Below, piece by piece: positions 338-36,361 of a DNA stretch of 36,786 nt. Positions within the stretch are counted from its first letter, which is position 1, and the number at the start of each line of letters is the position of its first letter. The DNA comes from Terriglobales bacterium (GTDB taxonomy: Bacteria > Acidobacteriota > Terriglobia > Terriglobales > Acidobacteriaceae), in NCBI GenBank assembly GCA_035489695.1, contig DATHJP010000082.1:1-36786 (forward strand), written 5' to 3'. Position numbers and translations under genes: made by a program. The notes beneath the pieces are model-generated. The model searched no databases. It was not told the DNA's origin and was given only the letters and a program-made list of their open reading frames with translations.

Positions 338-365
338 TAGAAACCAGAAACAGGAAACTAGAAAC
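338..365 (+). repeat. heptad array A: TAGAAAC CAGAAAC AGGAAAC TAGAAAC
   Basis: Four in-register NNGAAAC heptads fill the 33-nt tsaB-rimI spacer. The 13-mer GAAACAGGAAACT (347-359) recurs at 6352-6364. Confidence 0.8.
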
Positions 366-368
366 TCG

Positions 369-812
369 TTGCTAGTCCGTCCCGCTACCTCCGCTGACAT
401 TTCCTCCATGATGGCCTTGGAGACGCATGCAGTCACCGCTGCGCACTGGTCGCGACAGCAATATGAACAAGTCTTCGCAGCGCGTGAACCACGCCGGGAA
501 GCGCTGATTATAGAAAGAGAAGGCATCCAAGGGTTCCTTGTGGCGCGGGCCCTGGACAAAGAATGGGAGATTGAAAATATGGCGGTGTCCGGCCCCGCCC
601 GCCGACACGGTCTGGGAACACGTCTGCTCGGCGAGTTTCTTGATAAGGCGCGGATTGCAGGTGCGGAAATGGTGTTTTTAGAGGTGCGCGAGTCTAATCA
701 CGCGGCCCGCGCGTTGTACGAAAAATGGGCTTTCGTCCAATCCGGCTGCCGCCAGGGCTATTACCGCGGACCGGAAGAGGACGCCATCACGTATTGTCTT
801 TACTTTGCATAA
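369..812 (+). CDS. rimI: ribosomal-protein-alanine N-acetyltransferase (GNAT family)
   Basis: 147 aa with a TTG start. GNAT motif A is present (IENMAVSGPARRHGLGTRLL). Size and position after tsaB fit RimI. Confidence 0.75.
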   Translation: MLVRPATSADISSMMALETHAVTAAHWSRQQYEQVFAAREPRREALIIEREGIQGFLVARALDKEWEIENMAVSGPARRHGLGTRLLGEFLDKARIAGAEMVFLEVRESNHAARALYEKWAFVQSGCRQGYYRGPEEDAITYCLYFA

Positions 813-922
813 TTTGCCTCGTTTATGGTGCATATTTTGTTATTAAAGTATGGAATTTGGGATTGAACCAGCATAGGTCGTATGTTAGTTTTAGACTGAA
901 ATCAGGGCAGGAGGTCTGCTGG

Positions 923-1144
923 ATGCTAACTCCGAGGGACCAGCTCCTGGCCAGCCACGAAGAATTTCAAAAGCTGGCGCAGGAACATACCCAATACGCA
1001 CAACGTCTTGATTCACTCACCCAAAAGCGTTATCTCACCGAAGATGAAAAGTTGGAAGAAGTCCGGCTGAAAAAGCTGAAACTGCGCCTGAAAGATCAAA
1101 TGGAATCGATCGAGCGCCAGTATCGGCAGCATCAGGTCGCCTAA
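923..1144 (+). CDS. small coiled-coil protein, DUF465 (YdcH-like)
   Basis: Internal ATG of ORF 725..1144; the upstream part overlaps rimI. A GGAGGT Shine-Dalgarno lies 7-8 nt upstream. The 73-aa sequence MLTPRDQLLASHEEFQKLAQEH...LEEVRLKKLKLRLKDQME is typical of DUF465. Confidence 0.6.
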   Translation: MLTPRDQLLASHEEFQKLAQEHTQYAQRLDSLTQKRYLTEDEKLEEVRLKKLKLRLKDQMESIERQYRQHQVA

Positions 1145-1201
1145 TTCCCGTCCAGACTTTGTGCGGCCAAGCCGCCAAAGGGTTCATTCGCTTAAATCAA
1201 T

Positions 1202-1226
1202 GGCGCTCATAAGCGCCTTTTTTATT
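1202..1226 (+). terminator. putative intrinsic terminator after the DUF465 gene
   Basis: GGCGCT-CATA-AGCGCC hairpin (6-bp stem) followed by TTTTTTATT. Confidence 0.45.
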
Positions 1227-1243
1227 GGCATTTAACATGAAAG

Positions 1244-1274
1244 GCGCATGCGCGCTGTAGCCCTGCACTATAAT
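1244..1274 (+). promoter_or_regulatory. putative psd promoter: perfect TATAAT -10 with a GCGCATGCGC palindrome at the -35 position
   Basis: TATAAT lies at 1269-1274, 13 nt before the psd ATG, and no SD is present in between. A 10-bp perfect palindrome at 1244-1253 occupies the -35 position. Confidence 0.35.
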
Positions 1275-1287
1275 TCTTGTACTCCCC

Positions 1288-1950
1288 ATGGTTGCTGACG
1301 GCTACTATTACGCACTCGCGCTTCTAGGCGCGGCTGTCTTGCTGGGCTGGATTGCGGGCATATTCTGGGCGCTGCCCGCACTGTTTTTAGCGGCGTTCTT
1401 TCTGTGGTTCTTCCGTGATCCGGACCGGGAGATTCCTGACACGCCCGGGGTAGTGGTATCGCCCGCCGACGGAAAAGTTACAGGTATCTGGCCGGTAAGG
1501 GAAAGTGGTGTCCAGCAAACGCGCATCAGCATCTTTCTTAATGTCTTCGATGTTCACGTAAATCGCTCTCCAATCGGGGGAATCATTCGGGAAGTCCGCT
1601 ATCAGGTGGGAAAGTTTGGGAACGCGATGAATTTAACCTCCGCCGAACACAACGAGCAGAATATTGTCACCGTCGAAGGTGAAGGTGAGCCGGTGATATT
1701 CAAGCAAATCGCCGGGCTTTTGGCGCGCAGGATTGTGTTTACCAAAAAGGCAGGCGATCGGGTAGAACGCGGAGAACGGGTAGGACTGATCAAGTTCGGC
1801 TCGCGAGTGGACGTTTTTCTGGACGTCTCCGCGAATCTCCAAGTGAAGATCGGGGATCGGGTAAAAGGCGGAAGCAGTGTGTTGGCGTTTATGCCGCCGC
1901 CCGAACTTGCGGCGGTTGGGGCTGAACAGGCCCGGCAAGGAGCGTTTTGA
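1288..1950 (+). CDS. psd: phosphatidylserine decarboxylase proenzyme (short type)
   Basis: 220 aa with an N-terminal TM pair. It carries the C-terminal FGSRVDVF self-cleavage-type G-S motif. Its stop overlaps the pssA start (ATGA). Confidence 0.85.
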
Positions 1951-2834
1951 TGGACGCGGAATTTCCCGAGACCCCAAAGCGACGACTGGAAGATCGCCCT
2001 CCGAAAAAGCTCCGCAAGGGGATGTTCATTCTCCCCTCCTTGTTCACCACCGCGAACATCGCGTTTGGCTATTATGCGATTCTGCAAGTCACGCACGGCA
2101 ACATCACTGACTTCTGGCACTTCGATAATGCTGCTAAAGCGATTGGCTTTGCCGTGCTGTTCGATGGGCTCGACGGGCGTATTGCCCGGATGACCAAAAC
2201 TAGCAGCGATTTTGGCAGGGAACTGGATTCGCTCGCCGATGTCATCACCTTCGGCGTAGCGCCGGCTATGTTGGCCTGGAGTTGGGGTTTCCGCCAGTTG
2301 CCCGCCGTCCTGGCACCCCAGCTGTTGAGCAAGCTGGGACAATTGGGCGCCATCGCGAGCTTTCTCTTCCTGATGGCCGGGACCAGTCGTCTGGCCCGCT
2401 TCAACATTACGTCCAACCCACAACCCTCAAATCCGGGACCTCCGGGAAAGAAATATTTTGTGGGCATGCCGATTCCCGCTGGCGCCGGAGTCATTGCTGC
2501 CGTAGTGCATTTTTCTGGTGGGGATCCGATCGCATCCTGGTGGACTGCGGTTACCTGGATGCTGATGGTGGTCGCGGTCGCATACTTGATGGTGAGTACG
2601 TGGCGGTTCTACAGCTTCAAAGACATTGATTTCCGTTCGCGGCAACCATTCCAACTTATTATTCTTTTCGGCCTGTTGTTTGCCGCTATCTGGTATTTCT
2701 CAGAGTGGGTTCTGTTCGCGATTGCGCTGCTCTATATGTTCTCGGGTGTGGTCTGGCGTTTGCAATGGATTTTCCGGCGAAGGGGCGGTCCACCATCGCC
2801 TCCGGCTTACAAGGAGGCTTCGCAGACTTCATGA
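1947..2834 (+). CDS. pssA: CDP-diacylglycerol--serine O-phosphatidyltransferase
   Basis: Contains the CDP-alcohol phosphatidyltransferase motif [26 protein letters not shown]. It is a multi-TM protein. Confidence 0.85.
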
Positions 2835-3910
2835 GTTCGCACGCAAAATCGACCGCGCTCGCACATACCGAACCCATGCGGGGCGGCAACTTTTACCGTC
2901 TGGCAATTGTCGGCGCGGGAACGCTCAAGGGAAAAGAAGTTGCGGAAGTGCTCAGCGACCGCAATTTTCCTTCGCTGGATATCAAGCTTCTGGACGACGA
3001 TGAATCTCTAGGACAACTTGAGACCCTGAAAGATGAGATTACTTTCATCCAGAGCGTCCGAACCGAACAGTTCGACAAAATTGATTTCGCTTTTTTCGCG
3101 TCAGATCCGGACTGTACCCGCAGAAATTGGAAGACGGCCCGCAAGGCAGGCAGCGCAATTGTGGATCTTTCCTACGCGCTGGAAGACGAACCCGATGCAG
3201 TAGTACGGTCCCCGTGGGTTGAACGCCAGTTGGGCCAGGCACTAACCGTTGAATTGCAGCCGGGGCCATCGGTCGTGGCGCATCCGGCCGCCGTGGTGCT
3301 GGCTCTTATCCTGTTGCGAGCGCACCGGGCTGGCAAGGTCAAGCGCGCGGTGGCTACCGTGTACGAGCCTGCATCCGAACACGGACAAAAGGGAATGGAC
3401 GAACTGCACGAGCAGACGGTGAATCTGCTCTCGTTCCAGCAATTGCCCAAGAATGTGTTCGACATCCAGGTGGCTTTCAATATGGTAAGCCGCTATGGAC
3501 ACCAGGCGGCTCCCGCCTTGGCCACAATAGAGCATCGAGTGCTGAAGCATTACCAGCGCATCGCAGGCAAGGATGCGCCGCTCCCGTCGCTGCTGCTGGT
3601 GCAGGCCCCGATATTTCATGGACACGCTTTCGCAGTGCATGTCGAATTGGAACAAGCCATGGAATTGGCCACGTTTTCACAGGCACTGGCTGGTGAGCAT
3701 GTGAACATCACTCTTCTGGCCGAAGAAGCGCCCACCAACGTGAACGCCGCGGGACAGGGAGATGTGCTTTTGTCGATAGTTCCTGACCCAAATAGTGCGA
3801 ATAGCTTCTGGTTGTGGGCGGCCTCCGATAATCTGCGGATCGCGGCATCGACTGCGGTCGAGTGTGCAGAGACCATGGCCGCCAGCCGGCCCAAAGGGAA
3901 AATCCAGTGA
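2831..3910 (+). CDS. aspartate-semialdehyde dehydrogenase-like (Asd/USG-1 family) protein that lacks the catalytic Cys
   Basis: The ATG at 2831 overlaps the pssA stop (ATGA); the listed ORF start 2705 lies inside pssA. It has an N-terminal Rossmann segment (LAIVGAGTLKGKEV) and an Asd-like PIFHGHAF block. The expected N-P-N-C-S/T block reads AHPAAVV. Confidence 0.7.
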   Translation: MSSHAKSTALAHTEPMRGGNFYRLAIVGAGTLKGKEVAEVLSDRNFPSLDIKLLDDDESLGQLETLKDEITFIQSVRTEQFDKIDFAFFASDPDCTRRNWKTARKAGSAIVDLSYALEDEPDAVVRSPWVERQLGQALTVELQPGPSVVAHPAAVVLALILLRAHRAGKVKRAVATVYEPASEHGQKGMDELHEQTVNLLSFQQLPKNVFDIQVAFNMVSRYGHQAAPALATIEHRVLKHYQRIAGKDAPLPSLLLVQAPIFHGHAFAVHVELEQAMELATFSQALAGEHVNITLLAEEAPTNVNAAGQGDVLLSIVPDPNSANSFWLWAASDNLRIAASTAVECAETMAASRPKGKIQ

Positions 3911-4419
3911 AGCGCTGGCTCGCGGTGTTGGTTTGTGTGTGCTGCACAAGCTGCGGCTATCACACCGCCGGACACGCCGTTCAGCTTCCCGATAACGTCA
4001 AGACGATTGCCGTTCCAGCGTTTGTCAACAATACCCAGACTTACAAAATCGAGCAGATGCTTACTGCGGCGGTGGTACGAGAGATGGTGACACGCACTCA
4101 TTATCAAGTTCTAAATGGGCCGAATCAGGCAGCGGATGCGACGTTGCAGGGCACCGTCATTTCCAGCTACGCTTCTCCTCTTACTTATGACTCACAAACC
4201 GGACGCGCCGCTAGTGTGCTCGTGGTTGTCGGCATGAGAGTCTCGTTGACCGACAAGCAGGGCAAGGTTCTGTATCAGAATCCTTCTTACATATTCCGTG
4301 AGCAGTACCAGGTATCGCGCGAGCTCTCCAGCTTTTTCGAGGAAGATTCTCCAGCCATGCAACGCTTATCGCGCGAGTTTGCCCGCACCCTGGTCAGTAA
4401 CATTCTGGAGGGCTTTTAA
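3907..4419 (+). CDS. lptE: LptE-like LPS-assembly lipoprotein
   Basis: The GTG at 3907 overlaps the previous stop (GTGA). The signal/lipobox-like N-terminus is VKRWLAVLVCVCCTSCGY. It is about 170 aa and sits immediately upstream of holA, as in the lptE-holA arrangement of many Gram-negatives. Confidence 0.55.
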   Translation: MKRWLAVLVCVCCTSCGYHTAGHAVQLPDNVKTIAVPAFVNNTQTYKIEQMLTAAVVREMVTRTHYQVLNGPNQAADATLQGTVISSYASPLTYDSQTGRAASVLVVVGMRVSLTDKQGKVLYQNPSYIFREQYQVSRELSSFFEEDSPAMQRLSREFARTLVSNILEGF

Positions 4420-5543
4420 TGCGCGCCTTCGCGCAGGCTGACCGCTTCGTATCGGAAGTGGAAGCACACAAGCTGCGGCCTGCATACGTATTCGTTGGAG
4501 ATGAAGTCTTTTTCCGCAAGCGCTGCCGCGAAGCGATTCTCGAACATCTGGTGCCACCCGATTTGCGCGACTTCAGTCTGTTCGACTTTGATCTGTCGGA
4601 AACCGACCTGACCGAGATCCTTGATCGCGCGCGCACCCCATCACTGATGGCGCCTTTCCAGGTATTTTTTATCCGCGGAGTTAAGAACTTATTCGGTCGG
4701 GGATCGAACCAGGAAAAACTGGATGCCATCGAGGCTTACTGCAAGGATCCCAACCCGGCTGCCGTCCTGATCTTTGTAGCCGACCACATCAGCATCCCCG
4801 CCGATGCTCGCCGCATGGATCTGACCGACAAAGAGCGTTACGAACGTATTCGCGAATCGATGGGCGAGTATTGTGCCATCGTCGAATTGGCCCGGGTGGA
4901 AGAAGGCGAAGCCGTACTTTGGATTGGCGAATACTGCGCCCTGCAGTCAGTGAAAATTGAGCCGGATGCAGCACGCGAACTGGTGGACGCCCTCGGTGGC
5001 GACATGATGATGATCTCCAACGAACTGGAGAAACTCATTCTCTACGTGGGCGAGAAAAAGCGAATCACCCTGGGCGACGTCGAGACTATGGTGCTGGCCG
5101 CGAAACAAAGATCGCTTTATGAACTGACCGATGCCATCTCCGCCAAAGATCGCGTCCGTGCGCTGGAGATGCTGGATGCCATCCTCTCTACCGGTGATGG
5201 CGACGAAGCTGCGATCGGTCATCTTTACATGCTGGCAAAAACTTTCCGCCAAATGCTGGTCATTCTCGAGCGCAACGTACGAGATCAGCGCATGCTGTGG
5301 GCCGCGCTGTGGCAGGGCTTCCGCGTGCCTCCCTTTGCCGCCGACGACATCATCCGCCAGGCTCGCCGCTACAAATCGAAACGCGAACTGACTCGGGCTA
5401 TCCGCCAGATCGCAAAAGCCGACCTCGCATTACGCTCCAATCCTCCAAGCAAACGCATGATGTTGGAGAAATTGGTGCTCGACTTGACCACGGAACCAAA
5501 GCCGGAAGTGCCCGGCTGGTCACAGGAAGAGTTGCCGGTGTAA
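4419..5543 (+). CDS. holA: DNA polymerase III subunit delta
   Basis: 374 aa with the delta N-terminal pattern (KLRPAYVFVGDEVFF...). The start overlaps the lptE stop (TAATG). Confidence 0.75.
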   Translation: MRAFAQADRFVSEVEAHKLRPAYVFVGDEVFFRKRCREAILEHLVPPDLRDFSLFDFDLSETDLTEILDRARTPSLMAPFQVFFIRGVKNLFGRGSNQEKLDAIEAYCKDPNPAAVLIFVADHISIPADARRMDLTDKERYERIRESMGEYCAIVELARVEEGEAVLWIGEYCALQSVKIEPDAARELVDALGGDMMMISNELEKLILYVGEKKRITLGDVETMVLAAKQRSLYELTDAISAKDRVRALEMLDAILSTGDGDEAAIGHLYMLAKTFRQMLVILERNVRDQRMLWAALWQGFRVPPFAADDIIRQARRYKSKRELTRAIRQIAKADLALRSNPPSKRMMLEKLVLDLTTEPKPEVPGWSQEELPV

Positions 5544-5558
5544 CTCGGCGACCCGTCG

Positions 5559-6311
5559 ATGCTCAATGTATCTTCCTATCTTGCCCGCATCGGATACACC
5601 GGACCCACAATCCCCAAAGCAGATACATTACGCGCAATTCATCGCGCACATTTGCTGACCGTCCCTTTTGAAAATCTCGACATCGCAAGAGCAACGAAGA
5701 TTGTCTGTGAAGAAGACGCGTTCCTGCGCAAGATCGTTGACCGCCATCGTGGTGGTTTCTGCTACGAGCTGAACGGCGCTTTCGCCGCGTTACTGCGCGG
5801 GTTGGGATTTGAAGTCACTCTGCTATCCGCCCGTGTCCCGCGGGAAGATGGAACGGAAACTCCCGAATTCGATCATATGACGCTGCGTGTGGATCTTGAC
5901 GAACCCTGGCTGGCGGATGTGGGCTTTGGAGATTGCTTCCTGGAACCTTTACGATTGCAGACGCACGCCGAGCAATTACAGGATGGACAGAAGTTTCGTA
6001 TCAGAGAAGAAGGGAAGTCGTGTCACGTAGAAAGAGCTCAACCCGACGGAAGCTGGAAAGGAGAGTACACGTTTTCCCTCATTTCTCGACGCCTGGAAGA
6101 GTTTGCACCCATGTGCCATTACCATCAGACTTCGCCGGAATCACCGTTCACCCGCAAAAGAATCTGCAGCAGAGCCACGCGCGAAGGACGGATCACGCTG
6201 GCAGATCGGAAGTTGATCATCACGCGGCTAGGCAATCGGGAAGAAAAAGTGCTCGAATCAGAAGAAGAGTGGCAAGCGCCCTTACAGAAATATTTCCAGA
6301 TCGTTCTCTGA
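5559..6311 (+). CDS. arylamine N-acetyltransferase
   Basis: Contains the NAT catalytic-Cys block RGGFCYELNGAF, followed by the FDHMTL and ADVGFGD blocks (Cys-His-Asp triad context). Confidence 0.8.
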   Translation: MLNVSSYLARIGYTGPTIPKADTLRAIHRAHLLTVPFENLDIARATKIVCEEDAFLRKIVDRHRGGFCYELNGAFAALLRGLGFEVTLLSARVPREDGTETPEFDHMTLRVDLDEPWLADVGFGDCFLEPLRLQTHAEQLQDGQKFRIREEGKSCHVERAQPDGSWKGEYTFSLISRRLEEFAPMCHYHQTSPESPFTRKRICSRATREGRITLADRKLIITRLGNREEKVLESEEEWQAPLQKYFQIVL

Positions 6312-6342
6312 CCAAACCCAAAGATTATGAAAGATTAGAGAG

Positions 6343-6384
6343 CGAAAACTGGAAACAGGAAACTGGGAACTCGAAACTCGACCT
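6343..6384 (+). repeat. heptad array B: CGAAAAC TGGAAAC AGGAAAC TGGGAAC TCGAAAC TCGACCT
   Basis: Six in-register heptads lie in the convergent NAT/rpsT spacer. The spacer itself opens with CTGACCAAACCC at the NAT stop. Confidence 0.8.
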
Positions 6385-6387
6385 ACT

Positions 6388-6651
6388 CTACTTCAGCGCA
6401 TTCACCCTTACCCGCAGCCGCGACTTATACCGCGAAGCGGTGTTCTCGTGAATCACGCCCTTCTGAATAGCCTTATCGAGAGCGGAAACCGTCTCACGAA
6501 ATACCTGCTCAGCTGACTTTTTCTCGCCTTTGGCCAGCGATTCGCGTAGTTCTCGCAGAGCGCCGCGCAGGCGCGAACGGTTGTTACGGTTGCGGACGGT
6601 GCGTTTCTCAGTCTGACGGGCGCGTTTCAGCGCCGAAAAATGGTTTGCCAT
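6388..6651 (-). CDS. rpsT: 30S ribosomal protein S20
   Basis: 87 aa, [22 protein letters not shown]..., an unmistakable S20. Confidence 0.95.
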
Positions 6652-6722
6652 CTGGCTTCGTTACCTTCGTTTCTGTTGGCTTTCTCTAGAAAGAGAAGTT
6701 CGGGTGGAATACCGACTAAACT

Positions 6723-6752
6723 ATTTTACGGTAGTAAGTTGCGACTGGTCAA
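6723..6752 (-). promoter_or_regulatory. putative rpsT sigma70-type promoter
   Basis: On the minus strand, TTGACC (6752-6747) is followed by 18 nt and then TAAAAT (6728-6723). The leader contains a TTCTCT-AGAA-AGAGAA hairpin (6682-6697). Confidence 0.4.
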
Positions 6753-6786
6753 ACCAGTGTGACCAAACCAATCCGACCAAACCCAT
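6745..6786 (+). repeat. heptad array I: CTGGTCA AACCAGT GTGACCA AACCAAT CCGACCA AACCCAT
   Basis: Six in-register heptads give three GACCAAACC-type units at 14-nt spacing. The array ends exactly at the ATG of the AAA+ gene. Confidence 0.75.
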
Positions 6787-8397
6787 ATGCCGGATGCACT
6801 CGAGCGCCTCAAAATCCTGATCAACTCTTCCACTCCTATCGTGGTCATGGAGACGATCGAGGAAACGCGCGCCGTGGGCCTGGTGCGCGCCGCCTGCGCC
6901 GAACTGAATATGGCCGTCTTTGAATGGAGTATCGCAGACGGACTGGTCCGTTCCGGCAGCAACCTACCCGCGATTCCGGGAGCCAATCTGCAGATGCGAA
7001 TCAATGTGACTCGACATGCTGCGAATCCTGATGCTCCTGAATCCAGCAAATCAGCTATCTACAACACGCAGGATCCGGTGCAGGCTCTCGCCAACCTCGA
7101 GACCATGACGCTGGAAGCCGTCTTCATTCTTAAGGATTTTCATCGTCACATGGACAGCCCGGTCATTGTCCGGCGCCTTCGCGATGTGGGACAGAAGTTT
7201 TCCGCCAATCGGCGGACGTTAATTCTCACCGCCCCGTCGGTTGCGATCCCTCCGGAGTTAACCGGGCTGATCGAATATCTCGATTTACCTTTGCCCGACC
7301 GGCAGCGGTTGTTGCAGATTATCGACGAAATATTCAACAGGCTGGCAAAGACAAAGACCTATGCAGTGAAACGCGCGTTGGATGCGTCCGGAGTGGACGC
7401 GGTAGCGAACAATCTGCGTGGTCTGACCGAGGAAGAAGCCGACAGAGCGGTTTCTCAAGCCTTAGTGCGCCGCAATGCTCTTTGCCCGGAGACGGTTACA
7501 GATGTGCTCGAAGCCAAGAAAGAATTGCTGCGCCACTCCGGCATGCTGGAGTTCATCGATGCTTCTGACAATATGGCCAGTGTTGGCGGTCTGGATAATT
7601 TGAAACGCTGGCTGGCGCAACGTCGTGGGGCCTGGGAAGAGTCAGCCCGGGAGTTCGGCCTGGAGCCGCCGCGAGGGATGATCGTCCTCGGAGTGCAGGG
7701 CTGCGGCAAAAGCCTTTGTGCCAGAGCTGTGGCTGGAGAGTGGAACATTCCTCTCGTCAAGTTCGATGCCGCTGCCATCTTCGACAAGTACATTGGAGAA
7801 ACCGAGAAACGAATTCAGAAAGTTTTTAAAGTGGCCGAGGGTCTAGCGCCCTGTGTGCTGTGGATTGATGAGCTCGAAAAAGTTTTTGCTGGAAGCCAGC
7901 CGGATTCGGCGTCGGTGGACGCCGGAGTTTCCTCGCGCATTCTGGCGGCATTTCTTTCCTGGATGCAGGATCGAAAGGCGCCGGTATTCGTCGCCGCCAC
8001 CTGCAACAATGTGTCCGTGCTGCCGCCGGAGCTGATCCGTAAAGGACGGTTCGACGAATTATTCTTCGTAGACTTGCCGAATCAGACGGAGCGCAAGCAA
8101 ATCTTTGGCATTCAGTTAGTGCGGCGGAAACGAAATCCGGCCGACTTTGATTTGGAGCGGATCGCGGCAGCCGCAGAAGGATATTCCGGTGCCGAAATTG
8201 ATGCCGCAGTGCAGACCGCGATGTATGCAGCATTCTCCAGTAAGCAGCAAGTCTCGACGCAAGGGCTTCTGGATGCACTGAAAGCCACGGTTCCACTCTC
8301 GACCACCCGGGCGGAAGAAATTCAGGAGCTCAGACAGTGGGCACGAACCCGTGCCGTGCCGGCCGCGAATGCAGAGAGCAAAGGAAAAGGAGCTTAG
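6787..8397 (+). CDS. AAA+ ATPase, Ycf46-like (degenerate N-terminal domain plus one classical AAA module)
   Basis: Carries Walker A GVQGCGKS, Walker B VLWIDELE and the second-region-of-homology context ELIRKGRFDE. The N-terminus LKILINSSTPIVVMETIEETRAV resembles the Ycf46-type AAA family (from memory). Confidence 0.8.
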   Translation: MPDALERLKILINSSTPIVVMETIEETRAVGLVRAACAELNMAVFEWSIADGLVRSGSNLPAIPGANLQMRINVTRHAANPDAPESSKSAIYNTQDPVQALANLETMTLEAVFILKDFHRHMDSPVIVRRLRDVGQKFSANRRTLILTAPSVAIPPELTGLIEYLDLPLPDRQRLLQIIDEIFNRLAKTKTYAVKRALDASGVDAVANNLRGLTEEEADRAVSQALVRRNALCPETVTDVLEAKKELLRHSGMLEFIDASDNMASVGGLDNLKRWLAQRRGAWEESAREFGLEPPRGMIVLGVQGCGKSLCARAVAGEWNIPLVKFDAAAIFDKYIGETEKRIQKVFKVAEGLAPCVLWIDELEKVFAGSQPDSASVDAGVSSRILAAFLSWMQDRKAPVFVAATCNNVSVLPPELIRKGRFDELFFVDLPNQTERKQIFGIQLVRRKRNPADFDLERIAAAAEGYSGAEIDAAVQTAMYAAFSSKQQVSTQGLLDALKATVPLSTTRAEEIQELRQWARTRAVPAANAESKGKGA

Positions 8398-8698
8398 TGA
8401 TCGGATCCACCAGCTTCGGTACTGCGATAAGTGTTTTCTTGGACTTTCTAAGTCTCACGTTCCGGGCTCTGGTTGGGCATCGTGCGGCCATTGACTCCCA
8501 TCTAAGGGCGGGGGTACCCTAAACCCAATGGTAGTTGCTTGCACCTCGGGAGCGAGCACCTCGACTGGTTTTATCTCCAGACAGCAGAATAGTTTGTGCG
8601 TAAACGGGCTTATTGGCCGCCACGGGCGGGGCTATGCCCGGGCATCCAGGAACTCTGACACAAAGACTACAGGCGGGAGGGAAGCGCCCTATAACTGA

Positions 8699-9763: not shown

Positions 9764-9776
9764 AATCCTCTAGACC

Positions 9777-9809
9777 AGGAGGGCCGGGTTCGGTCCTCCT
9801 ATTTATTTT
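9777..9809 (+). terminator. intrinsic terminator after phoH
   Basis: AGGAGGGCC-GGGTTC-GGTCCTCCT forms a 9-bp stem with one G-U pair, followed by ATTTATTTT. Confidence 0.6.
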
Positions 9810-9845
9810 GGAACACGAGGATCGGAATATTTCCCAGGAACGAGC

Positions 9846-11692: not shown

Positions 11693-11701
11693 TCCTGCCA
11701 G

Positions 11702-13190: not shown

Positions 13191-13191
13191 C

Positions 13192-26397: not shown

Positions 26398-26411
26398 AGT
26401 CCGCGCCGGCC

Positions 26412-27242: not shown

Positions 27243-27349
27243 GTTATTGCCTCACTTTAAGAAAAGCAGATTTGCCGGGAACTTTTGAAAGTAACCCGTT
27301 GGGAAGTTCTTCGTCAAGGCACTGAGGTAATAGCCTCTTGCCAGTTTAA

Positions 27350-28606: not shown

Positions 28607-28613
28607 AAAAACA

Positions 28614-28753
28614 GTGGTCAGTGGCCAGTGGTCGGTGGCCAGTAAAACCAGGAACTAAGAACCGACAACTGCGAACTAAGAATTAAGACCCAAACTAGGA
28701 ACTCCGAACTGTGTCGGTTTTTACTGGCAACTGACCACTGGCCACTGACCACT
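28614..28753. repeat. heptad array E: 20 in-register heptads whose ends form a roughly 35-bp imperfect inverted repeat
   Basis: The left arm (28614-28649) pairs with the right arm (28716-28752). There are 20 perfect pairs, then 14 more with one G-T, one mismatch and one bulge. The 66-nt centre is made of NNNGAAC-type heptads. Confidence 0.85.
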
Positions 28754-28758
28754 CGTTC

Positions 28759-29775: not shown

Positions 29776-29790
29776 CGTTCCTCCTATTCA

Positions 29791-30723
29791 TTAGTTGATC
29801 TGAACATCGCCAGAGCCGGTATGCACGGTGAGCATCGGACCGCCTCCGCGGACCTTACCGCTGATCGAACGTTGCGCACGTTGCACATTGCCCTGAACCG
29901 TCATGGTCACGGGATGGTCCACTGTGACTGTTCCCGAACCGGTAGACGCTCCCAGATCGAAGGCTGCCTGTGAAGGCAGGCGAAGCCGCACATTGCCTGA
30001 CCCTGTCCTAATATCCCAGATACCTGTCTGGGTACCGTCGATGGTGATATCGCCGCTGCCGGCTTCGGCGCGTACCGTGCCCTGTACGTCGCGAAGCTCG
30101 ATGTTTCCGGATCCGGTGTGAACTCGCACATCCCCGCTACCTTTTGCATTCAGGCGGATGTCCCCGCTGCCGGCTTCAGCGTTGAAGGCACCCGTCACAT
30201 CCTGCGCGTCAATATTTCCGGATCCGGTGTGCGCGTGCAGGTCGCCGTTCAAGTCTTTCAATCGCATATCGCCAGATCCGCTCTCCAGCTCCAGATTGCT
30301 TCGAATACCTTCAATGGTTTGATCTCCTGAGCCGCTGTGGGTGCGCAATCGAGTATCGGCCGGAACTGTTATGTCGTAATCAACGGAGATATTGCGGACA
30401 TTGACGTAGTCAATCCGAATGCTATTGCCGGTTTGGCGAATCGGAGGATTCTTTTCCAATTCGCTGACTTCGCCCTGACGGCCCCCGGAAAACCATTGCT
30501 CGCCAACAAAAATTTTCCCGCTGATGGATACCGTTCCTGCCGGACCACTATGGACCTTGATATCCCCAGAGTGAGTCAGGACTTCCAGGTCCACCGCTCC
30601 AGTAACCTGAAAGCTGCGCTGAAACGACCCTCGAACGGAAGCCGCGGCCGGAAGCGTGCAGCAAAATAAGACCAGCAAACTAAAGCTGAGATAAACCGCT
30701 GAAAATTGAATACGAGATTTCAA
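29791..30723 (-). CDS. secreted DUF4097 (toastrack-fold) repeat protein, paralogue of the downstream gene
   Basis: TTG start preceded by an AGGAGG SD (30736-30731). It has a signal-like N-terminus and about ten (T/A)GSG(D/N)(I/V) rungs. Confidence 0.8.
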   Translation of the reverse strand: MKSRIQFSAVYLSFSLLVLFCCTLPAAASVRGSFQRSFQVTGAVDLEVLTHSGDIKVHSGPAGTVSISGKIFVGEQWFSGGRQGEVSELEKNPPIRQTGNSIRIDYVNVRNISVDYDITVPADTRLRTHSGSGDQTIEGIRSNLELESGSGDMRLKDLNGDLHAHTGSGNIDAQDVTGAFNAEAGSGDIRLNAKGSGDVRVHTGSGNIELRDVQGTVRAEAGSGDITIDGTQTGIWDIRTGSGNVRLRLPSQAAFDLGASTGSGTVTVDHPVTMTVQGNVQRAQRSISGKVRGGGPMLTVHTGSGDVQIN

Positions 30724-30739
30724 GATGTATCCTCCTAGA

Positions 30740-30774
30740 CTAACTACTAGCCACTAATCACTAGCCACTGCCCT
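30740..30774 (+). repeat. heptad array F: CTAACTA CTAGCCA CTAATCA CTAGCCA CTGCCCT
   Basis: Five in-register heptads lie between the permease stop and the SD of the first DUF4097 gene. Confidence 0.7.
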
Positions 30775-32026
30775 ACTCGTACCTCAGCGAATCCACCGGC
30801 GTCATCTCCGCCGCGCGCTGCGCCGGATACATCCCCGCGGTCAACGTAATAATTGAAAGTGTCAGGACCGAAGCAATGATGGAAATGGGGGAAACAATTG
30901 GATGCGGCACGAAGTCTGGCAGCGGGATCACGGTCAGCGCCACACACGCTCCCACTCCGAACGTCAGGCCGAGCACTCCACTCACCACGGTCAGAATCGC
31001 CGACTCCGCAAAAAATTGCCGCAAAATATCCCGCCGAGTTGCTCCAATGGCTTTGCGCACCCCAATTTCGCGCGTACGCTCCGTGACTGAAACCAGCATG
31101 ATGTTCATCACCCCAATTCCGCCCAGGCACAATGTGATAATCGCCACGCAGGCGAAGAAAATCGTGATCACATTGAAGATGTTCTCCACCAGCTTGGCGC
31201 CTTCCATCGTGTCCCAGATGAACAACGCGTCTTTGTCCTTGGCATCGAAGTGGTGAATCCGCCCCAAAGTTCGACGCACTTGCAAAACCGCATCTTCATG
31301 TTCCTCAGGATCAGCGACTTCGAAAACTATATTGTCAAGATAGCCGCGAACGATGCCCGGCTTCTGCGGAGGCGGAAAATCTCGCGCCACCGCCGAGTAT
31401 GGAGCGTACAGATAATCGTTATCCGGCCCGCTGTAATTGGAATTTTGTTTCTTTTTCTGCAGCACACCGATCACGGTGTAGGGAACTCCCTTGATAGACA
31501 ACGCAGCGCCCACTGCAGGTTGTCCACTGAATAATTGCGCGCGGGCGGCATCGCCCAGGATAACTACCCGCCGCGCCTCGCGCTCATCTTCATCGGTGAG
31601 AAGCCGTCCTTCGCTCAACAGCAGAGAACGGAATTGCTGATACGACGGCCACATGCCCACCACACCGCGATTCGCAGAGTTGAATTGGCTGACTTCCGGC
31701 ACGCTGCGTCGCAGTTCCGGACTCACATTCTTGACTTGATAACACTCGTCACGAACCAGCCGGGCATCTTCGATAGTGAGGCTGATTTCGCGTCCTGCGG
31801 CCAGCCCACCCACCTGGGAACTGGTACGCCCGCCCCAGACAATCACCAGGTCTTTCCCCAGAGTCTGCATGCGCTTCTTCGAGTCCACGCTGAAACCCCG
31901 CCCCAACCCGACCAGCAGGATCACCGACGCGATTCCCCACACAATGCCAAACATGGTGAGGAAAACTCGCATCTTGTGTGCCCGGAAGCTCTCCAAGGTC
32001 TGCCGCAGGATTTCGATAACACTCAT
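30773..32026 (-). CDS. MacB-type ABC transporter permease (MacB_PCD plus FtsX), no ATPase domain
   Basis: 417 aa, a paralogue of 27350..28606. It shares the GVMNIMLVSVTERTREIG block with that gene and ends VDSLRYE. Confidence 0.85.
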   Translation of the reverse strand: MSVIEILRQTLESFRAHKMRVFLTMFGIVWGIASVILLVGLGRGFSVDSKKRMQTLGKDLVIVWGGRTSSQVGGLAAGREISLTIEDARLVRDECYQVKNVSPELRRSVPEVSQFNSANRGVVGMWPSYQQFRSLLLSEGRLLTDEDEREARRVVILGDAARAQLFSGQPAVGAALSIKGVPYTVIGVLQKKKQNSNYSGPDNDYLYAPYSAVARDFPPPQKPGIVRGYLDNIVFEVADPEEHEDAVLQVRRTLGRIHHFDAKDKDALFIWDTMEGAKLVENIFNVITIFFACVAIITLCLGGIGVMNIMLVSVTERTREIGVRKAIGATRRDILRQFFAESAILTVVSGVLGLTFGVGACVALTVIPLPDFVPHPIVSPISIIASVLTLSIITLTAGMYPAQRAAEMTPVDSLRYE

Positions 32027-32113
32027 GAATCGGATCTCAAGTCGTTGGCCTGATCACCTACAACTCAGACGCTCGGGAAGGGAAATCGTTAATCAAACCA
32101 GCCTCTAAAGTGG

Positions 32114-32142
32114 CAGAGCCCAAGCCGCCGGCTTGGGCTCTG
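32114..32142. other. 14-bp perfect hairpin in the adaptor-permease intergenic region
   Basis: CAGAGCCCAAGCCG-C-CGGCTTGGGCTCTG. No U-tract follows on either strand. Confidence 0.5.
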
Positions 32143-32168
32143 AAGTTCATGTGCGAGGTCCGACGCTC

Positions 32169-33380
32169 CTACTGCAGCACAACCTGATCGCCTTCCTTCA
32201 ACCCGCTGAGCACTTCGGTCTTGGCCCCATTTGATATACCAATATTGACGGCCATCTTCTTCTTGCCCTCTTTTTCTTTCGGATCCGGCACCTCGACCGA
32301 GGCTTTTTTGTCCTTGTCGTAAATGATCGCGCCTTCTGGAATCTGCAGCACACCCTTGTGCTCGTCCAGAATGATTTCAGCATTCGCAGTCATCGCCGCC
32401 TTCAGTTCGCCGCCGGGATTATTAATCGAGACCCGTACCTCGAACGTGGTTACGTTGTCCTTCTCCACGCCCATGGGCGAGATCTTGGTCACCTTGCCGG
32501 AGAAAGTTTTGTCCTTGAAAGATTCCACTTTAATCCGCGCCGGTTGACCGAGATAAACCTTGCCAATATCGCTCTCATCAACTTTGCCCTTGACGTAAAC
32601 CTCGCTGGTATCGCCCAAAGTCATGATCAAAGTAGCGGACGAACCGAGTACCAGGATGGAGCTCACCGCATCCCCGCGCTCCACATCCCGCGAAAGCACT
32701 ATTCCGTCGATTGGCGATGCGATAGTCGTGTAACCGAGCTGTTCTTCAAGTTGCTTTAAGTTGGCGCGGTCTTGCATCACTTGCGCCTGGGACTGCCCGA
32801 TCTTGGCCTTCAAAACGATAAGCTGCGCTTTCGACACGTTCTGTTTGTTCAGCGCCATTTCGTAGTTCTTCTGCGCATCGTCGAGAGCCGAGGCCGATAC
32901 CACACCTGCTTTGGCCATGCCCGAAGCCCGCTCGTAGGCGCGCCTCAACAAAGGCACATCCGGACCTTCGGCATCCACTTTGGCGCGCTGCCAGTCAGCC
33001 TCTGTGCCTTTCAAGCTGGCATCGCTGGCTTCCAATTGCGCCCGCGCCTGGGCAACACGCGCTTCGATCTCTTCTTTGTCGAGTTCGGCGAGCAGCTGCC
33101 CTCGCTTCACCTTGTCGCCGGCATCCACATAAAGTTTCTTGACGATCCCGCTGGCTTTGGATTTGACCTCCACCTTGGTGATGGGCTCAACTTTTCCCGT
33201 CGCCACCACGCTCTTGGCCAGATCGCCTTTCTCTACTCTCGCCAATTTCGAAGGATCGATCTTCGTGCCGCCGCGAGTAAAGGCGTACAGCACCACCGCT
33301 CCCAGCAGGATGATCCCAACCACGATGCCGCCATAAATCAGCCGTTTACGCTTTTTCTTATGATTACCGTTGCCGTTCAC
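32169..33380 (-). CDS. MacA/HlyD-family periplasmic adaptor (membrane fusion protein)
   Basis: The GTG at 33380 is preceded by an AGGAGG SD; the longest ORF starts at TTG 33395. It has a basic N-terminus plus TM, a lipoyl-like domain, a coiled-coil hairpin (ARVAQARAQLEASDASLKG...) and a beta-barrel domain. Confidence 0.85.
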   Translation of the reverse strand: MNGNGNHKKKRKRLIYGGIVVGIILLGAVVLYAFTRGGTKIDPSKLARVEKGDLAKSVVATGKVEPITKVEVKSKASGIVKKLYVDAGDKVKRGQLLAELDKEEIEARVAQARAQLEASDASLKGTEADWQRAKVDAEGPDVPLLRRAYERASGMAKAGVVSASALDDAQKNYEMALNKQNVSKAQLIVLKAKIGQSQAQVMQDRANLKQLEEQLGYTTIASPIDGIVLSRDVERGDAVSSILVLGSSATLIMTLGDTSEVYVKGKVDESDIGKVYLGQPARIKVESFKDKTFSGKVTKISPMGVEKDNVTTFEVRVSINNPGGELKAAMTANAEIILDEHKGVLQIPEGAIIYDKDKKASVEVPDPKEKEGKKKMAVNIGISNGAKTEVLSGLKEGDQVVLQ

Positions 33381-33648
33381 ATCCGCCTCCTGCAATTAAG
33401 TCGTTGGGACCCGAGTGGTGTTACGCAATCAGTTTGCGTTTTGTTCCGAAGATTCAGAACCAGGATATTGCCCGTTACTGCCCGCGCCCATGCATTAGAC
33501 CGGCAAACCCCGGAAATGAAAGCAGAAAATCTGATGTTTGAGTCGACGAAAAGAATCTCAAAGCAGGCAGTTAGTCACCGCTACTTCCACTATTATGCCC
33601 TATTCTACAACAGCTTAGCCTCGGGATAACTGCTTACGCCCTTTGGAA

Positions 33649-33657
33649 TGTTAGAAT
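33649..33657 (+). promoter_or_regulatory. extended -10 promoter element TGTTAGAAT immediately upstream of the CNNM gene
   Basis: TG-N-TAGAAT at 33649-33657. Only 9 nt separate it from the ATG at 33667, and no SD is present. Confidence 0.3.
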
Positions 33658-33666
33658 TAGCGATCC

Positions 33667-35037
33667 ATGATTGCATTTGTGCTGCTCCGGGTATTTTTGA
33701 TTCTTCTCCTGGTAGCAGCCAACGCTTTCTTCGCCGCAGCCGAATTCGCTCTGGTGAGCGTGCGCGATACGCGCATCCAGCAGCTCATCGAAGCTCGCCG
33801 CATCGGTGCCCGCATTGTCCAGAAACTCCACCGCAATCTGGACGAAGTGGTCAACGGCGTCCAACTGGGAATCACGGTCACCAGTCTTACCCTAGGCTGG
33901 GTAGGCGAGCCGCTGTTGGCCCGCATGGTTGAAGGTTCCATCGGACGCATTCCGCATGCCGCACTTTATTCCCACGGCATCGCTATCGTAGTTGCCTTCG
34001 CTCTAATCACATTCCTGCACGTGATCCTCGGCGAACTGGTTCCTAAATCCCTGGCCCTCCAGCGTGCTGAACAAGTTGCCCTGGCCGTCGCTGGCCCCAT
34101 GGACGTTTTCCTCACCGTCAGCCGCCCCTTCCTTTTTGTGATGAGTCGGGCGGCCGGCGTCGTACTCCGTATATTCGGCTCGCGTAAGATTCGCCAGGGT
34201 CCCATCCACTCGCCCGATGAACTCAAACTGATTGTCACTGCCAGCCGACAGTTCGGCCAGATCCCGCCCTTCCAGGAAGAAGTCATTCATCAGGCGCTCG
34301 ACTTGGAAAACATAACGGTGCGCGAGGTCATGGTGCCTCGCCCGGATATCTTTTCGCTCCCCGGAGACCTCACCTTGGAAGAAGCCCTGGGACGCGTGGT
34401 TGAAGAGCAACACTCGCGCATTCCCATCTATGACCCGCAGCGCGGCCCTGAACACATCATCGGAGTGCTCTACGCCAAGGACTTGATGCGTTGGACCCGC
34501 CTGCGTTATACCGCCAACCCCATGCAGCCAGTGTTACCTCGCATCACCAACATGAAAATCAGCCAGATCATGCACGACGTCCTGGTCGTACCCGAAACCA
34601 AAGTCCTCACCGAACTTCTGGAGGAATTCAAACAACGTAAACGCCATCTCGCAGTAGTAGTGGACGAGTTTGGCTCGACCGCGGGCGTGATCACCGTCGA
34701 AGACATTTTGGAACAACTGGTCGGTGAGATCGAAGACGAATTCGATGTCGTCCCACCTCAGCATGGTGCTCTAGAAGGGAAGACCGCCCTGATGCTCGAA
34801 GGCTCAGCCAGTATTCGCGATCTCGAATCACAACATGATCTGTTACTGCCACGCGACGCTGGATTCGAGACCCTCGCGGGATTTGTGCTCTCCCGATTGC
34901 AGCGCGTTCCCAGCATCGGCGACACCTTCGACTATGAAGGTCATCGTTTCACGGTCGCCGAGATGGAAGGCCACCGCATCGCCCGTGTAAAAATCGAAAA
35001 ACTTGAACCCGCACGCCTAGGCCAGGTAGGAGATTAA
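33667..35037 (+). CDS. CNNM/DUF21 family membrane protein with CBS pair and CorC_HlyC domain (hemolysin-family annotation class)
   Basis: Contains DUF21 TM segments (NAFFAAAEFALVS), CBS pair (VREVMVPRPDIF...) and a C-terminal CorC/HlyC domain. Confidence 0.85.
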   Translation: MIAFVLLRVFLILLLVAANAFFAAAEFALVSVRDTRIQQLIEARRIGARIVQKLHRNLDEVVNGVQLGITVTSLTLGWVGEPLLARMVEGSIGRIPHAALYSHGIAIVVAFALITFLHVILGELVPKSLALQRAEQVALAVAGPMDVFLTVSRPFLFVMSRAAGVVLRIFGSRKIRQGPIHSPDELKLIVTASRQFGQIPPFQEEVIHQALDLENITVREVMVPRPDIFSLPGDLTLEEALGRVVEEQHSRIPIYDPQRGPEHIIGVLYAKDLMRWTRLRYTANPMQPVLPRITNMKISQIMHDVLVVPETKVLTELLEEFKQRKRHLAVVVDEFGSTAGVITVEDILEQLVGEIEDEFDVVPPQHGALEGKTALMLEGSASIRDLESQHDLLLPRDAGFETLAGFVLSRLQRVPSIGDTFDYEGHRFTVAEMEGHRIARVKIEKLEPARLGQVGD

Positions 35038-35039
35038 AA

Positions 35040-35177
35040 CTAAGAACCGAGAACCAAGAACTGACAACTGAATTGAATATCCCGAACCCAGACACCCGGC
35101 ACCAACCCGACACCGGGCACCAAGCTGAGATCTGGTCCCTTACTGACAACTGGCAACTGAGCACTGACAACTGATTC
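35040..35177 (+). repeat. heptad array G: CTAAGAA CCGAGAA CCAAGAA CTGACAA CTGAATT ... CTGACAA CTGGCAA CTGAGCA CTGACAA CTGATTC
   Basis: The array fills the whole 141-nt spacer from the CNNM stop to the dppB-like ATG. One phase shift occurs in the C-rich centre. Confidence 0.85.
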
Positions 35178-35178
35178 C

Positions 35179-36096
35179 ATGCTCCGCTACCTCTCCCTTC
35201 GCCTGCTGTACACGTTACCGGTTGTCTGGCTTGTAGTCTCCCTGGTTTTCCTGTTAATTCATCTGGTCCCCGGCGATCCCATCCTGCAGATGCTAGGCGA
35301 AAGTGCTCCAGCGACAGACATACAAGCCGCCAGGCATCAATACGGACTGGACGTCCCGCTTGGCCAGCAATACCTCCACTACTGGAAAGGCGTGCTGCAC
35401 GGCGATCTCGGCCCCTCGGTCCGCTTCAACCAGAGCGTCACCAGCCTGATCGCACAGCGCTATCCATATACTCTGCAGTTGACGCTCGCGGCGCTGCTCG
35501 TTGCAATTCTGCTTTCCGTTCCTGCGGGCGTCCGCTCCGCGCGCCGCCGCGATCGATGGGATGATCGTCTGCTCAGCGTAGTCAGCCTCTTCGGCCTTTC
35601 CTTTCCAAACTTCGCCCTCGGTCCGATATTAATTTTATTTTTCGCCATCAATCTCGGCCTCCTTCCCGTATCCGGCTCCGGAACTTTCGCCCACCTGGTC
35701 CTTCCCGCCATCACCATGGGCGGCGCTTTGGCTGCGATCCTCACCCGCATGGTGCGCACCTCGATGCTGGAAGAACTGGGCCAGGACTACGTCCGCACCG
35801 CGCGCGCCAAAGGACTTTCAGAGGGAACCGTCGTCTACCGCCACGCCTTGCGCAACGCCATGATCCCCGTCATCACCGTCCTCGGCCTGCAATTCGGAGC
35901 ACTGCTCGCAGGCGCGATTGTCACCGAGACGATTTTTTCCTGGCCCGGCATCGGGCGTCTGACCATCCAAGCCATCGGCAATCGTGACTATTACCTGGTA
36001 CAAGGCTGCATCTTGGCCATTGGGCTGACTTATGTCGCAGTGAATTTTCTGACAGATTTGTTGTACTCGGTGGCGAATCCGAGGATACGGCAATGA
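35179..36096 (+). CDS. ABC transporter permease, DppB/OppB type (binding-protein-dependent transport inner membrane component)
   Basis: 305 aa. The N-terminus MLRYLSLRLLYTLPVVWLVVSLVFLLIHLVPGDP and the EAA-loop region YVRTARAKGLSEGTVVYRHALRNAM are typical. Confidence 0.85.
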   Translation: MLRYLSLRLLYTLPVVWLVVSLVFLLIHLVPGDPILQMLGESAPATDIQAARHQYGLDVPLGQQYLHYWKGVLHGDLGPSVRFNQSVTSLIAQRYPYTLQLTLAALLVAILLSVPAGVRSARRRDRWDDRLLSVVSLFGLSFPNFALGPILILFFAINLGLLPVSGSGTFAHLVLPAITMGGALAAILTRMVRTSMLEELGQDYVRTARAKGLSEGTVVYRHALRNAMIPVITVLGLQFGALLAGAIVTETIFSWPGIGRLTIQAIGNRDYYLVQGCILAIGLTYVAVNFLTDLLYSVANPRIRQ

Positions 36097-36221
36097 ACGT
36101 CGCAGCAGGTCTTGCGCTAGAATCTTTACCCGTCTCAGCCCGAGGATTGCCTTCCCTTAGCCGATCAGCGCGTTTAGTGAACGCGTGTGTGACGCACGCC
36201 GCCACCTGTTGGGCCAGAGGG

Positions 36222-36361
36222 GTTAGAGAACCTCAAACCAACCTGTAAACTGAGAACCGAGAACGATGAACTGACAACTGATTTGATGTCTCGACACCTA
36301 ACACCCTGATACCTGTCCCCTGACCGACACTCGACAACCGACAACTGACCACTGATTAATG
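36222..36361 (+). repeat. heptad array H: ...CTGTAAA CTGAGAA CCGAGAA CGATGAA CTGACAA CTGATTT ... ACAACTG ACCACTG
   Basis: About 20 heptads in one register. Positions 36250-36290 are about 80 percent identical to 35040-35080. Confidence 0.85.

Follow-up and report, generated by a model that had tools for sequence, protein, structure and literature searches.

Ten intergenic spacers of a Terriglobales bacterium are built of tandem, degenerate heptanucleotide (7-nt) repeats. They lie in a stretch of 36,786 nucleotides (positions 1 to 36,786 of contig DATHJP010000082.1, assembly GCA_035489695.1), which we call the window and have analysed in its whole length. The feature is real and statistically robust, and the arrays are of a known, functionally unsolved kind of repeat, found here in a host phylum for which we found no prior report. 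We propose that they are simple sequence repeats (SSRs) made by slippage that survive only between genes, where arrays in sense orientation provide unstructured leaders lacking a Shine-Dalgarno (SD) sequence and inverted pairs provide intercistronic hairpins; we give this proposal slightly better than even odds (about 0.55). In our best reading the repeats serve as such leaders and hairpins, or are simply tolerated as such. The slippage mechanism and any effect on gene expression are what we infer from the observations that follow.

A preliminary description of this DNA had listed the ten spacers, and degenerate heptads are indeed present in each of them when the sequence is read in 7-nt register. 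Numbered by position, and on the + strand unless stated, they hold arrays 1 (337-368), 2 (6343-6384), 3 (6745-6786), 4 (13192-13212), 5 (16928-16958), 6 (25651-25719), 7a (28612-28647, minus strand), 7b (28652-28688), 7c (28719-28755), 8 (30740-30774), 9a (35038-35083), 9b (35142-35178), 10a (36243-36293) and 10b (36323-36358), in three intergrading flavours: NNGAAAC, CTGAGAA/CTGACAA and CTGRCCA. When 3.3 kb of manually curated intergenic DNA was pooled, identity at lag 7 reached 0.314 versus 0.253 +/- 0.008 in 1000 dinucleotide-preserving shuffles (z = 7.5), with echoes at lag 14 (0.294) and lag 21 (0.275); the coding DNA of the window showed period 3 only. Taken singly, nine spacers gave a local lag-7 score with p <= 0.004 (2000 shuffles) and the tenth, at 6745-6786, has period 14 (lag-14 score 13), while the remaining 13 spacers of at least 20 nt in the window gave no lag signal in 2000 shuffles each. 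Tandem Repeats Finder (TRF) independently called period 7 or 14 at 12 places within the listed spacers, a strict lag scan of the window returned nine arrays at lag 7 and none at lags 4-6 and 8-11, and a three-unit pattern matched six times against 0.00 expected. The arrays are also non-coding, as had been claimed: all those detected are intergenic, and at a strict threshold the four arrays called in the window all lay between genes and none within them. These window statistics rest on manual gene coordinates checked with Pfam and NCBIfam.

The arrays are related to one another, another point of the preliminary description that is borne out. Both of the shared strings that it quoted are exact and at the positions given (347-359 and 6352-6364; 25651-25671 and 36243-36264). 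Beyond these, a 46-nt module (family D1) occurs at 25655, 35038 and 36248 in copies 70-80% identical, each of which begins at a stop codon and includes a non-periodic tail, and two further families join other flavours: D6 (arrays 1, 2 and 4) and D3 (arrays 5, 7c, 8, 9b and 10b). The distinction from clustered regularly interspaced short palindromic repeats (CRISPR) stands, the 7-nt units being contiguous and without spacers, in contrast to CRISPR repeats of ~23-50 nt separated by unique spacers of similar length. That from repetitive extragenic palindromic (REP) units and bacterial interspersed mosaic elements (BIMEs) stands as well, in that the arrays are tandem heptads mostly without a dyad; the statement that only one copy has a dyad has to be amended, as two spacers have a significant one. 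REP units of enterobacteria are palindromes of 20-40 nt, whereas the window has tandem heptads and eight of its ten spacers lack a significant dyad. The likeness to REP/BIME elements is functional only and lies in the stable stem-loops predicted between operon cistrons in spacer 7 and, in relatives, between corC and era. Rfam 15 gave no match at gathering score in the whole window, which rules out a known RNA family at that score.

Comparison with relatives reveals how the arrays change. The Era protein of the window is 94% identical to those of two 'Acidobacteriales bacterium' metagenome-assembled genomes (MAGs) from soil (L001 and L002, which share ~87% DNA identity with the window), the next relatives being dozens of Terriglobales MAGs at 68-78%; the host can therefore be identified as an uncultured acidobacterium of the Terriglobales. 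The window and L002 each have three 14-nt units in array 3 and L001 has a single one; this indel of 28 nt is clean, with nearly identical sequence on either side. L001 has two units of array 4 versus three in the window (a 7-nt indel), and L002 has a GC-rich palindrome instead. In the place of array 2, L001 carries another heptad flavour (CTGAGAC/CTGACAC), and 9 nt are missing from L215; neither L001 nor L002 has array 5. Strains L217 and L222 have an extra 7- or 6-nt unit at the 5' edge of array 6, and a 7- or 8-nt unit indel at the 5' edge of array 9 distinguishes L081, L083 and L084. Array 8 of L081, which lies in a more divergent recombination block, has six CTG-type units versus five CTA-type units in the window. 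The indels inside arrays (28, 7, 7, 7-8 and 6-7 nt) thus amount to about one, two or four units; one of 9 nt and one of ~14 nt fit a whole-unit change less cleanly. In sequence comparison, these unit-sized indels, flavour changes and absences are consistent with slippage and turnover.

Two side observations come from the same alignments. Over window positions 30540-36784, L081 is 100% identical for several kb, and identity falls to 78-95% in left-end blocks and a few windows of 200 nt, a mosaic that suggests recombination between strains. The GC-rich palindrome, of the form GCGGGCGCCCTCGYCCGCG, is found in L002 at ~6620-6680 (the array 4 position) and recurs in the corC-era spacers of L016, L018 and L044; perhaps it is a dispersed, REP-like element in these Terriglobales MAGs.

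Sense arrays 9b, 10b and 7a lead through a short linker into the start codons at 35179, 36359 and 28606 (minus strand), respectively; these three starts and that at 6787 have no SD match, with anti-SD duplexes of -1.9 kcal/mol or weaker. Spacers 9 and 10, which hold direct arrays, are predicted to be unpaired, with an overall z near 0. Spacer 7 (28604-28753, minus strand) is predicted to fold in its entirety into a hairpin of -73.4 kcal/mol (z = -9.1) that ends 9 nt before the AUG and whose arms are the inverted arrays, 35 nt long and 94% complementary. A smaller palindrome in spacer 6 (25650-25725) reaches -20.8 kcal/mol (z = -4.4) and is terminator-like on the minus strand in a consensus scan. 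With z between -1.4 and +1.1 in the other six spacers folded, only spacers 6 and 7 beat their shuffles. Clusters of promoters or terminators were considered and discarded as an identity for the arrays: consensus scans gave fewer sites than shuffles over 1-18500 and no more than shuffles over 18501-36786, and only spacer 6 and the first unit of array 3 overlap matches.

The arrays are not confined to the window: they are found both in Terriglobales relatives and in metagenome contigs. The intergenic lag-7 excess is 0.065-0.095 in the species of the window versus at most 0.034 in other loci, values that are approximate for the relatives because a simple gene finder mis-calls some genes. One case is the spacer between corC and era, which measures 9 nt in the window, L001 and L002 and 0-2 nt in a number of other relatives. 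Eight other lineages fill it with 64-177 nt of CTAGNAG-type heptad arrays, one of them with 13 near-perfect copies. About ten further lineages have arrays of octads there (L003, L005, L010, L011, L012, L048 and L050, at about 9900-10000, as well as L030 and L043), in which AATTGGGT or CACAGAGG units are paired with their complements in inverted orientation, a layout like that of the heptad hairpins with a different period. Usually the corC-era arrays form an inverted pair predicted to close the entire spacer into a hairpin (16-38 bp between the arms; z of -1.8 to -6.0), and seven to eight Terriglobales have such a hairpin between corC and era. Nitrospirota and other MAGs also contain heptad arrays, with other units. 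The densest of all the loci compared is a 16-kb locus of uncultured bacterium N1_Bin_METABAT_18_1 (L060), with six period-7 and five period-8 arrays of many different units.

A metagenome scan for three ACTGRSM units followed by ACTG identified at least 120 contigs with such arrays, with G+C contents from 36% to 76%, and we analysed 88 selected arrays on 80 of these contigs. Soil data sets in which the contigs are found include JGI 3300019890 and ENA ERZ27268031. Other arrays on the same 80 contigs have period 7 in 38 cases, with unrelated unit sequences, and every other period from 4 to 15 accounts for 10 arrays at most. Among the matches listed, an open reading frame (ORF) starts within 15 nt downstream of 25 of the 88 arrays on the ACTG strand and of 6 of the 88 on the opposite strand, figures that become 39 versus 7 within 30 nt, and 32 of the 39 start-proximal arrays on the ACTG strand lack GGAG, GAGG or AGGA. 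Many of the listed junctions match those of the window: the array, then TT to TTTTT, then ATG.

In the window itself, array 1 has four to five NNGAAAC units (p = 0.0005) in CTAGAAA register and extends from the stop of ORF 72-335 to the TTG start of a GNAT acetyltransferase gene at 369, in sense orientation to both. Array 2, of six NNGAAAC units (p = 0.0005), lies in the convergent spacer between an N-acetyltransferase gene (5559-6311, +) and rpsT (6388-6651, minus strand). Array 3 is formed by three 14-nt units of CTGGTCAAACCAGT type that reach the SD-less ATG at 6787 of an AAA ATPase gene; its first unit overlaps a -35-like TTGACC on the minus strand that faces rpsT. Array 4 fills a 26-nt convergent spacer with CTGGAAA, CTGGAGA and CCAGAAA (p = 0.004), and the four CTGNCYA units of array 5 (p = 0.0015) lie between two minus-strand genes, antisense to both. 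Array 6, of CTGAGAA type, begins within the last codons and TAA of a PilR-like gene, carries one copy of the 46-nt module and has a palindromic tail that fills the convergent spacer. All three convergent spacers of the window carry arrays.

Spacer 7 is composite. Array 7a, of CTGGCCA and CCGACCA units in sense orientation to the operon, is the 3' arm of the predicted hairpin and ends as ACTGTTTTT-ATG, without SD, at the start of a macB-like gene; array 7b, of CTAAGAA and CCGACAA units, contains D1 copies, is antisense to the operon and would be the loop; array 7c, of ACTGGCA and ACTGACC units, is the 5' arm and follows on the transcript just after the stop of a liaG-like gene. The five CTARYYA units of array 8 lie between two minus-strand genes, antisense to both; next on the transcript comes the normal AGGAGG SD of the gene at 29791-30723. 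Directly after the TAA of a CNNM/CorC gene, array 9a is an 80% copy of the 46-nt module (CTAAGAA, CCGAGAA, CCAAGAA, CTGACAA and the tail) that is predicted to be unpaired. Array 9b, of ACTGACA, ACTGGCA and ACTGAGC units, ends as ACTGATTCC-ATG at the SD-less start of an ABC permease gene, a start call that is sound because Pfam matches the product from residue 1. Array 10a, a 70% copy of the module, begins with the TAA that closes a 51-aa ORF (36093-36248), and array 10b, of CCGACAA and CTGACCA units, ends as ACTGATTA-ATG at the called start of a HigB-like toxin gene, again without SD. In arrays 6 and 10 the TAA is itself part of the first degenerate unit.

The window encodes PhoH, YbeY, CorC, Era, S20, PilB/T/C, MacAB-like transporters, a HigB-like toxin and two sigma-54-dependent two-component pairs. 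A cyanobacterial host is ruled out by the sigma-54-dependent regulators, PilB/T/C and an Era 94% identical to those of Acidobacteriales MAGs. Exact-protein look-ups of ORF 72-335 and of the macB-like gene gave no match. The GNAT ORF (369-812) overlaps a DUF465 ORF (725-1144) by 88 nt in a different frame, and the true start of the latter is probably further downstream. Upstream of rpsT, positions 6652-6744 are ~99% identical in L001 and L002 versus the locus average of 87%, and probably hold a leader or promoter of rpsT that is conserved; TTGACC and TAAAAT, separated by 18 nt, form a promoter-like site at 6752-6723 on the minus strand. Just 3' of pilC (21180-22388), a 20-nt inverted repeat (22406-22455, 95% complementary, 10-nt loop) is likely a terminator or regulatory hairpin ahead of a PilS/PilR-like pair. 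Tandem paralogues occupy 27350-32026, namely macB-like permeases (27350-28606 and 30773-32026) and liaG-like genes (28759-29775 and 29791-30723), and the junctions of this duplicated block hold three heptad spacers. The HigB-like toxin gene (region 36093-36730) interrupts an ABC permease operon, and spacer 10 lies at the edge of this toxin-antitoxin insertion. In L082 (1620-3605) the HigB-like toxin is followed by a helix-turn-helix (HTH) antitoxin and a ParE-type pair. The 51-aa ORF overlaps the permease stop and resembles a stump of the next permease gene, the rest of which comes after the toxin-antitoxin block in L082.

Intergenic heptanucleotide repeats have been known since 1990, and their function was never settled. 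The units CCCCAGT, TTGGTCA and CAACAGT of cyanobacterial short tandemly repeated repetitive (STRR) sequences were reportedly described by Mazel et al. in 1990. The claim of the preliminary description that no described class of elements has this architecture does not hold, as intergenic heptanucleotide tandem repeats are already in the literature (PMC2670836; PMC4692102; PMC4679880; bioRxiv 10.1101/2022.06.06.494920). Heptanucleotide units are the most abundant long SSRs in many prokaryotes, and ~7 nt has been proposed as a polymerase-interacting length that favours slippage (Mrázek et al., 2007, as relayed in PMC4679880 and PMC4692102). The window shows the traits of long SSRs in that sense: head-to-tail 7-nt copies, a length beyond that expected from composition, unit-sized changes and exclusion from coding DNA. 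STRR sequences repeat a 7-bp unit and can fold into hairpins between genes of an operon, such as hupS and hupL, with function unknown (PMC2670836). Like them, the arrays of the window are tandem 7-bp units in several flavours per genome, lie between operon genes and can form hairpins, and the STRR cores CAGT/ACTG and TGACCA resemble the ACTGACC and TGGTCAA of the window. However, no canonical STRR1-3 dimer was found in the window at up to 2 mismatches on either strand, STRR arrays are often long and perfect whereas those of the window are short and decayed, and their hosts are (heterocystous) cyanobacteria, a phylum other than that of our acidobacterium.

Heptamers are also an over-represented, intergenic repeat in Xanthomonas (GGGAATC) and Nostoc (GGGGAYT), where the same genes flank the arrays in related species while length and sequence vary greatly, some arrays are inverted pairs, and slippage has been proposed as the origin (PMC4692102). 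The window shares the over-represented period, the intergenic location and the inverted pairs, but the Xanthomonas and Nostoc units are G-rich and form G-quadruplexes, whereas those of the window are A/C-rich with at most two consecutive G. A further close parallel is provided by the TAACTGA direct repeats of marine Beggiatoaceae, some Cyanobacteria and Bacteroidetes, which are contiguous and intergenic, typically in two to six copies (MacGregor, 2015, PMC4679880). Those of the Orange Guaymas Beggiatoaceae mostly point forward and closely precede SD-less start codons, overlapping the usual SD position (PMC4679880), and the same forward, start-proximal, SD-less placement is seen in the window at 6787, 28606, 35179 and 36359. 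GAACTGA and CAACTGA of the window are one substitution from TAACTGA, and ACTGATA is TAACTGA in another register; no exact TAACTGA dimer is present in the window, the best matches being TAACTGAGAACCGA and GAACTGACAACTGA with 2 substitutions. The Beggiatoaceae have one dominant, perfect unit, in contrast to the several intergrading, degenerate flavours of the window, where arrays are also found after stop codons, throughout convergent spacers and in antisense orientation. Acidobacteria are not among the phyla of that survey (MacGregor, 2015, PMC4679880), and we found no report of heptad arrays in Acidobacteria in the literature searched, an absence of evidence only, given its limited coverage.

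Taken as a mechanism, our proposal is that slipped-strand mispairing would create and remodel arrays of the STRR and long-SSR kind, that some arrays would occasionally be copied between spacers, and that they would then decay through point mutation. Because expansion of a 7-nt unit inside an ORF shifts the frame, arrays would persist only between genes. A direct array in sense orientation would provide an A/C-rich, unpaired leader without SD, joined to the start codon by a short U-rich linker, and initiation there, we propose, must then be SD-independent. An inverted pair would turn the entire spacer into a long hairpin between cistrons, which would act, as REP elements or STRR hairpins would, in processing, stability or termination. 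Slippage-made spacer DNA and a translation-related role, two of the possibilities raised in the preliminary description, are both among the live explanations.

Several observations weigh against this proposal. Slippage alone leaves unaccounted for the period of 7 (8 in some lineages), as well as the 46-nt module with its non-periodic tail at three loci. About two thirds of the window genes without arrays also lack a clear SD, with crude start calls, so the missing SD is not specific to array-preceded genes. Arrays 2, 3, 9b and 10 are invariant in 5-10 near-identical assemblies, which rules out hypervariable contingency loci; since near-identical strains are almost invariant, the arrays are slowly turning-over, decayed repeats and not hypermutable switches. 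Finally, 13 of the 14 sub-arrays have the same + strand orientation whatever the direction of the genes, in copies that are not independent, and four sub-arrays are consequently antisense to their operons; a purely transcript-level role predicts neither. A replichore cause of the shared orientation was rejected, as the cumulative GC skew turns within the window and the arrays do not flip.

An unlikely alternative is that the arrays are binding sites of a protein that recognises single-stranded RNA (or DNA) every 7 nt, for instance through a cold-shock domain or the S1 OB folds. The arrays would then define a post-transcriptional regulon, and lineage-specific units and the choice of period 7 or 8 would be the outcome of co-evolution with this reader. 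A single cold-shock domain binds 6-7 nt, and HutP recognises NAG triplets spaced 7 nt apart. A reader would account for a strict period despite varying unit sequences, and it is in keeping with arrays that are predicted to be unpaired, with their strong sense and start-proximal bias and with the way in which array, U-rich linker and AUG adjoin time and again in contigs that are unrelated. It would be less expected to tolerate several unrelated flavours within one genome, arrays lost, replaced or absent at orthologous genes of close relatives, and arrays antisense to the operon or in convergent spacers; the 7-nt-step reader is here a hypothetical protein. A reader of double-stranded DNA seems less likely, because contiguous 7-bp sites rotate by ~240 degrees per unit around the helix and known heptamer-repeat activators use 11-bp spacing. 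Precedents for a reader have been put forward elsewhere: S1, Csp and CsrA were proposed for TAACTGA repeats (PMC4679880), and a heptamer-binding partner was inferred in Nostoc, where eight copies of GAC(C/T)AAT overlap the recO start codon and their deletion alters reporter behaviour (bioRxiv 10.1101/2022.06.06.494920).

Rather improbable, in our view, is that the arrays are neutral junk left by a 7-nt slippage bias, without effect on expression, the orientation bias near starts arising only because the G/T-rich antisense version is harmful there. Poor conservation, turnover between relatives and degenerate units are what this would predict, era functions with a spacer of 0-9 nt or of 64-177 nt, and polymerase slippage is the hypothesis advanced for heptamers (Mrázek et al., 2007, as relayed in PMC4679880 and PMC4692102). 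Neutrality sits uneasily with the asymmetry of 25 versus 6 in orientation and with the SD-less junction of array, U-linker and AUG in unrelated organisms, both among the matches listed, and also with inverted arms that stay complementary across lineages though the unit and the period change.

We hold it very improbable that the spacers are what is left of a small element, mobile or linked to gene cassettes, composed of 5' module, centre and 3' module with the heptads as internal structure. The 46-nt module with its tail at three loci, the similar 3' modules that end at start codons, and spacer 10, placed at the junction of a HigBA/ParE block in an ABC permease operon with a TAA that closes the stump ORF, could be read in this way. 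Yet we saw neither terminal inverted repeats nor target-site duplications nor a transposase, arrays are missing at the other junctions of the L082 toxin-antitoxin block, most arrays have only units in common and no longer homology, and the unit-sized indels indicate change in situ. Scarcely credible is a role in transcription punctuation, as terminators, Rho-loading sites or all-frame stop insulators: the arrays in all three convergent spacers, the terminator-like match in spacer 6, the GC palindrome that replaces array 4 in L002 and the units bearing TGA, TAG or TAA that put stops in three frames within 21 nt speak for it, but most arrays are unstructured and without U-tracts, terminator-like sites are not enriched over shuffles, several arrays lie inside apparent operons directly before start codons, the analysis lent no support to the Rho-loading role suggested earlier, and the many related arrays without any stop codon (ACTGGCA, ACTGGCC, ACTGGGA) rule out the all-frame stop cassette, or the insulation first suggested, as a general rationale.

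Slippage-made SSRs surviving between genes as SD-less leaders and intercistronic hairpins would still be our choice, and the finding has consequences beyond this locus. The window adds a soil acidobacterium to the hosts of heptamer repeats, with units that are one-base neighbours of the TAACTGA of Beggiatoa and cyanobacteria. For annotation, gene callers and ribosome-binding-site (RBS) models will mis-score starts preceded by heptad arrays. The same layout of sense array, U-rich linker and AUG, mostly without SD, recurs at G+C contents from 36% to 76%, and a common role in SD-independent initiation is therefore worth testing. More speculatively, and with a probability that we consider low, ACTGNNN heptads with a short U-rich linker and AUG could be the cis element of a widespread system of SD-independent initiation and operon punctuation, with a single-strand-binding protein of 7-nt footprint (a cold-shock domain or S1 OB fold) that would read the heptads in register. 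If so, the element would be common to Acidobacteriota, Beggiatoaceae, Cyanobacteria, Bacteroidetes and many uncultured soil bacteria, its unit sequence and even its period (7 or 8) would co-evolve with the reader, and inverted arrays would be switchable hairpins that hide or expose the leader.

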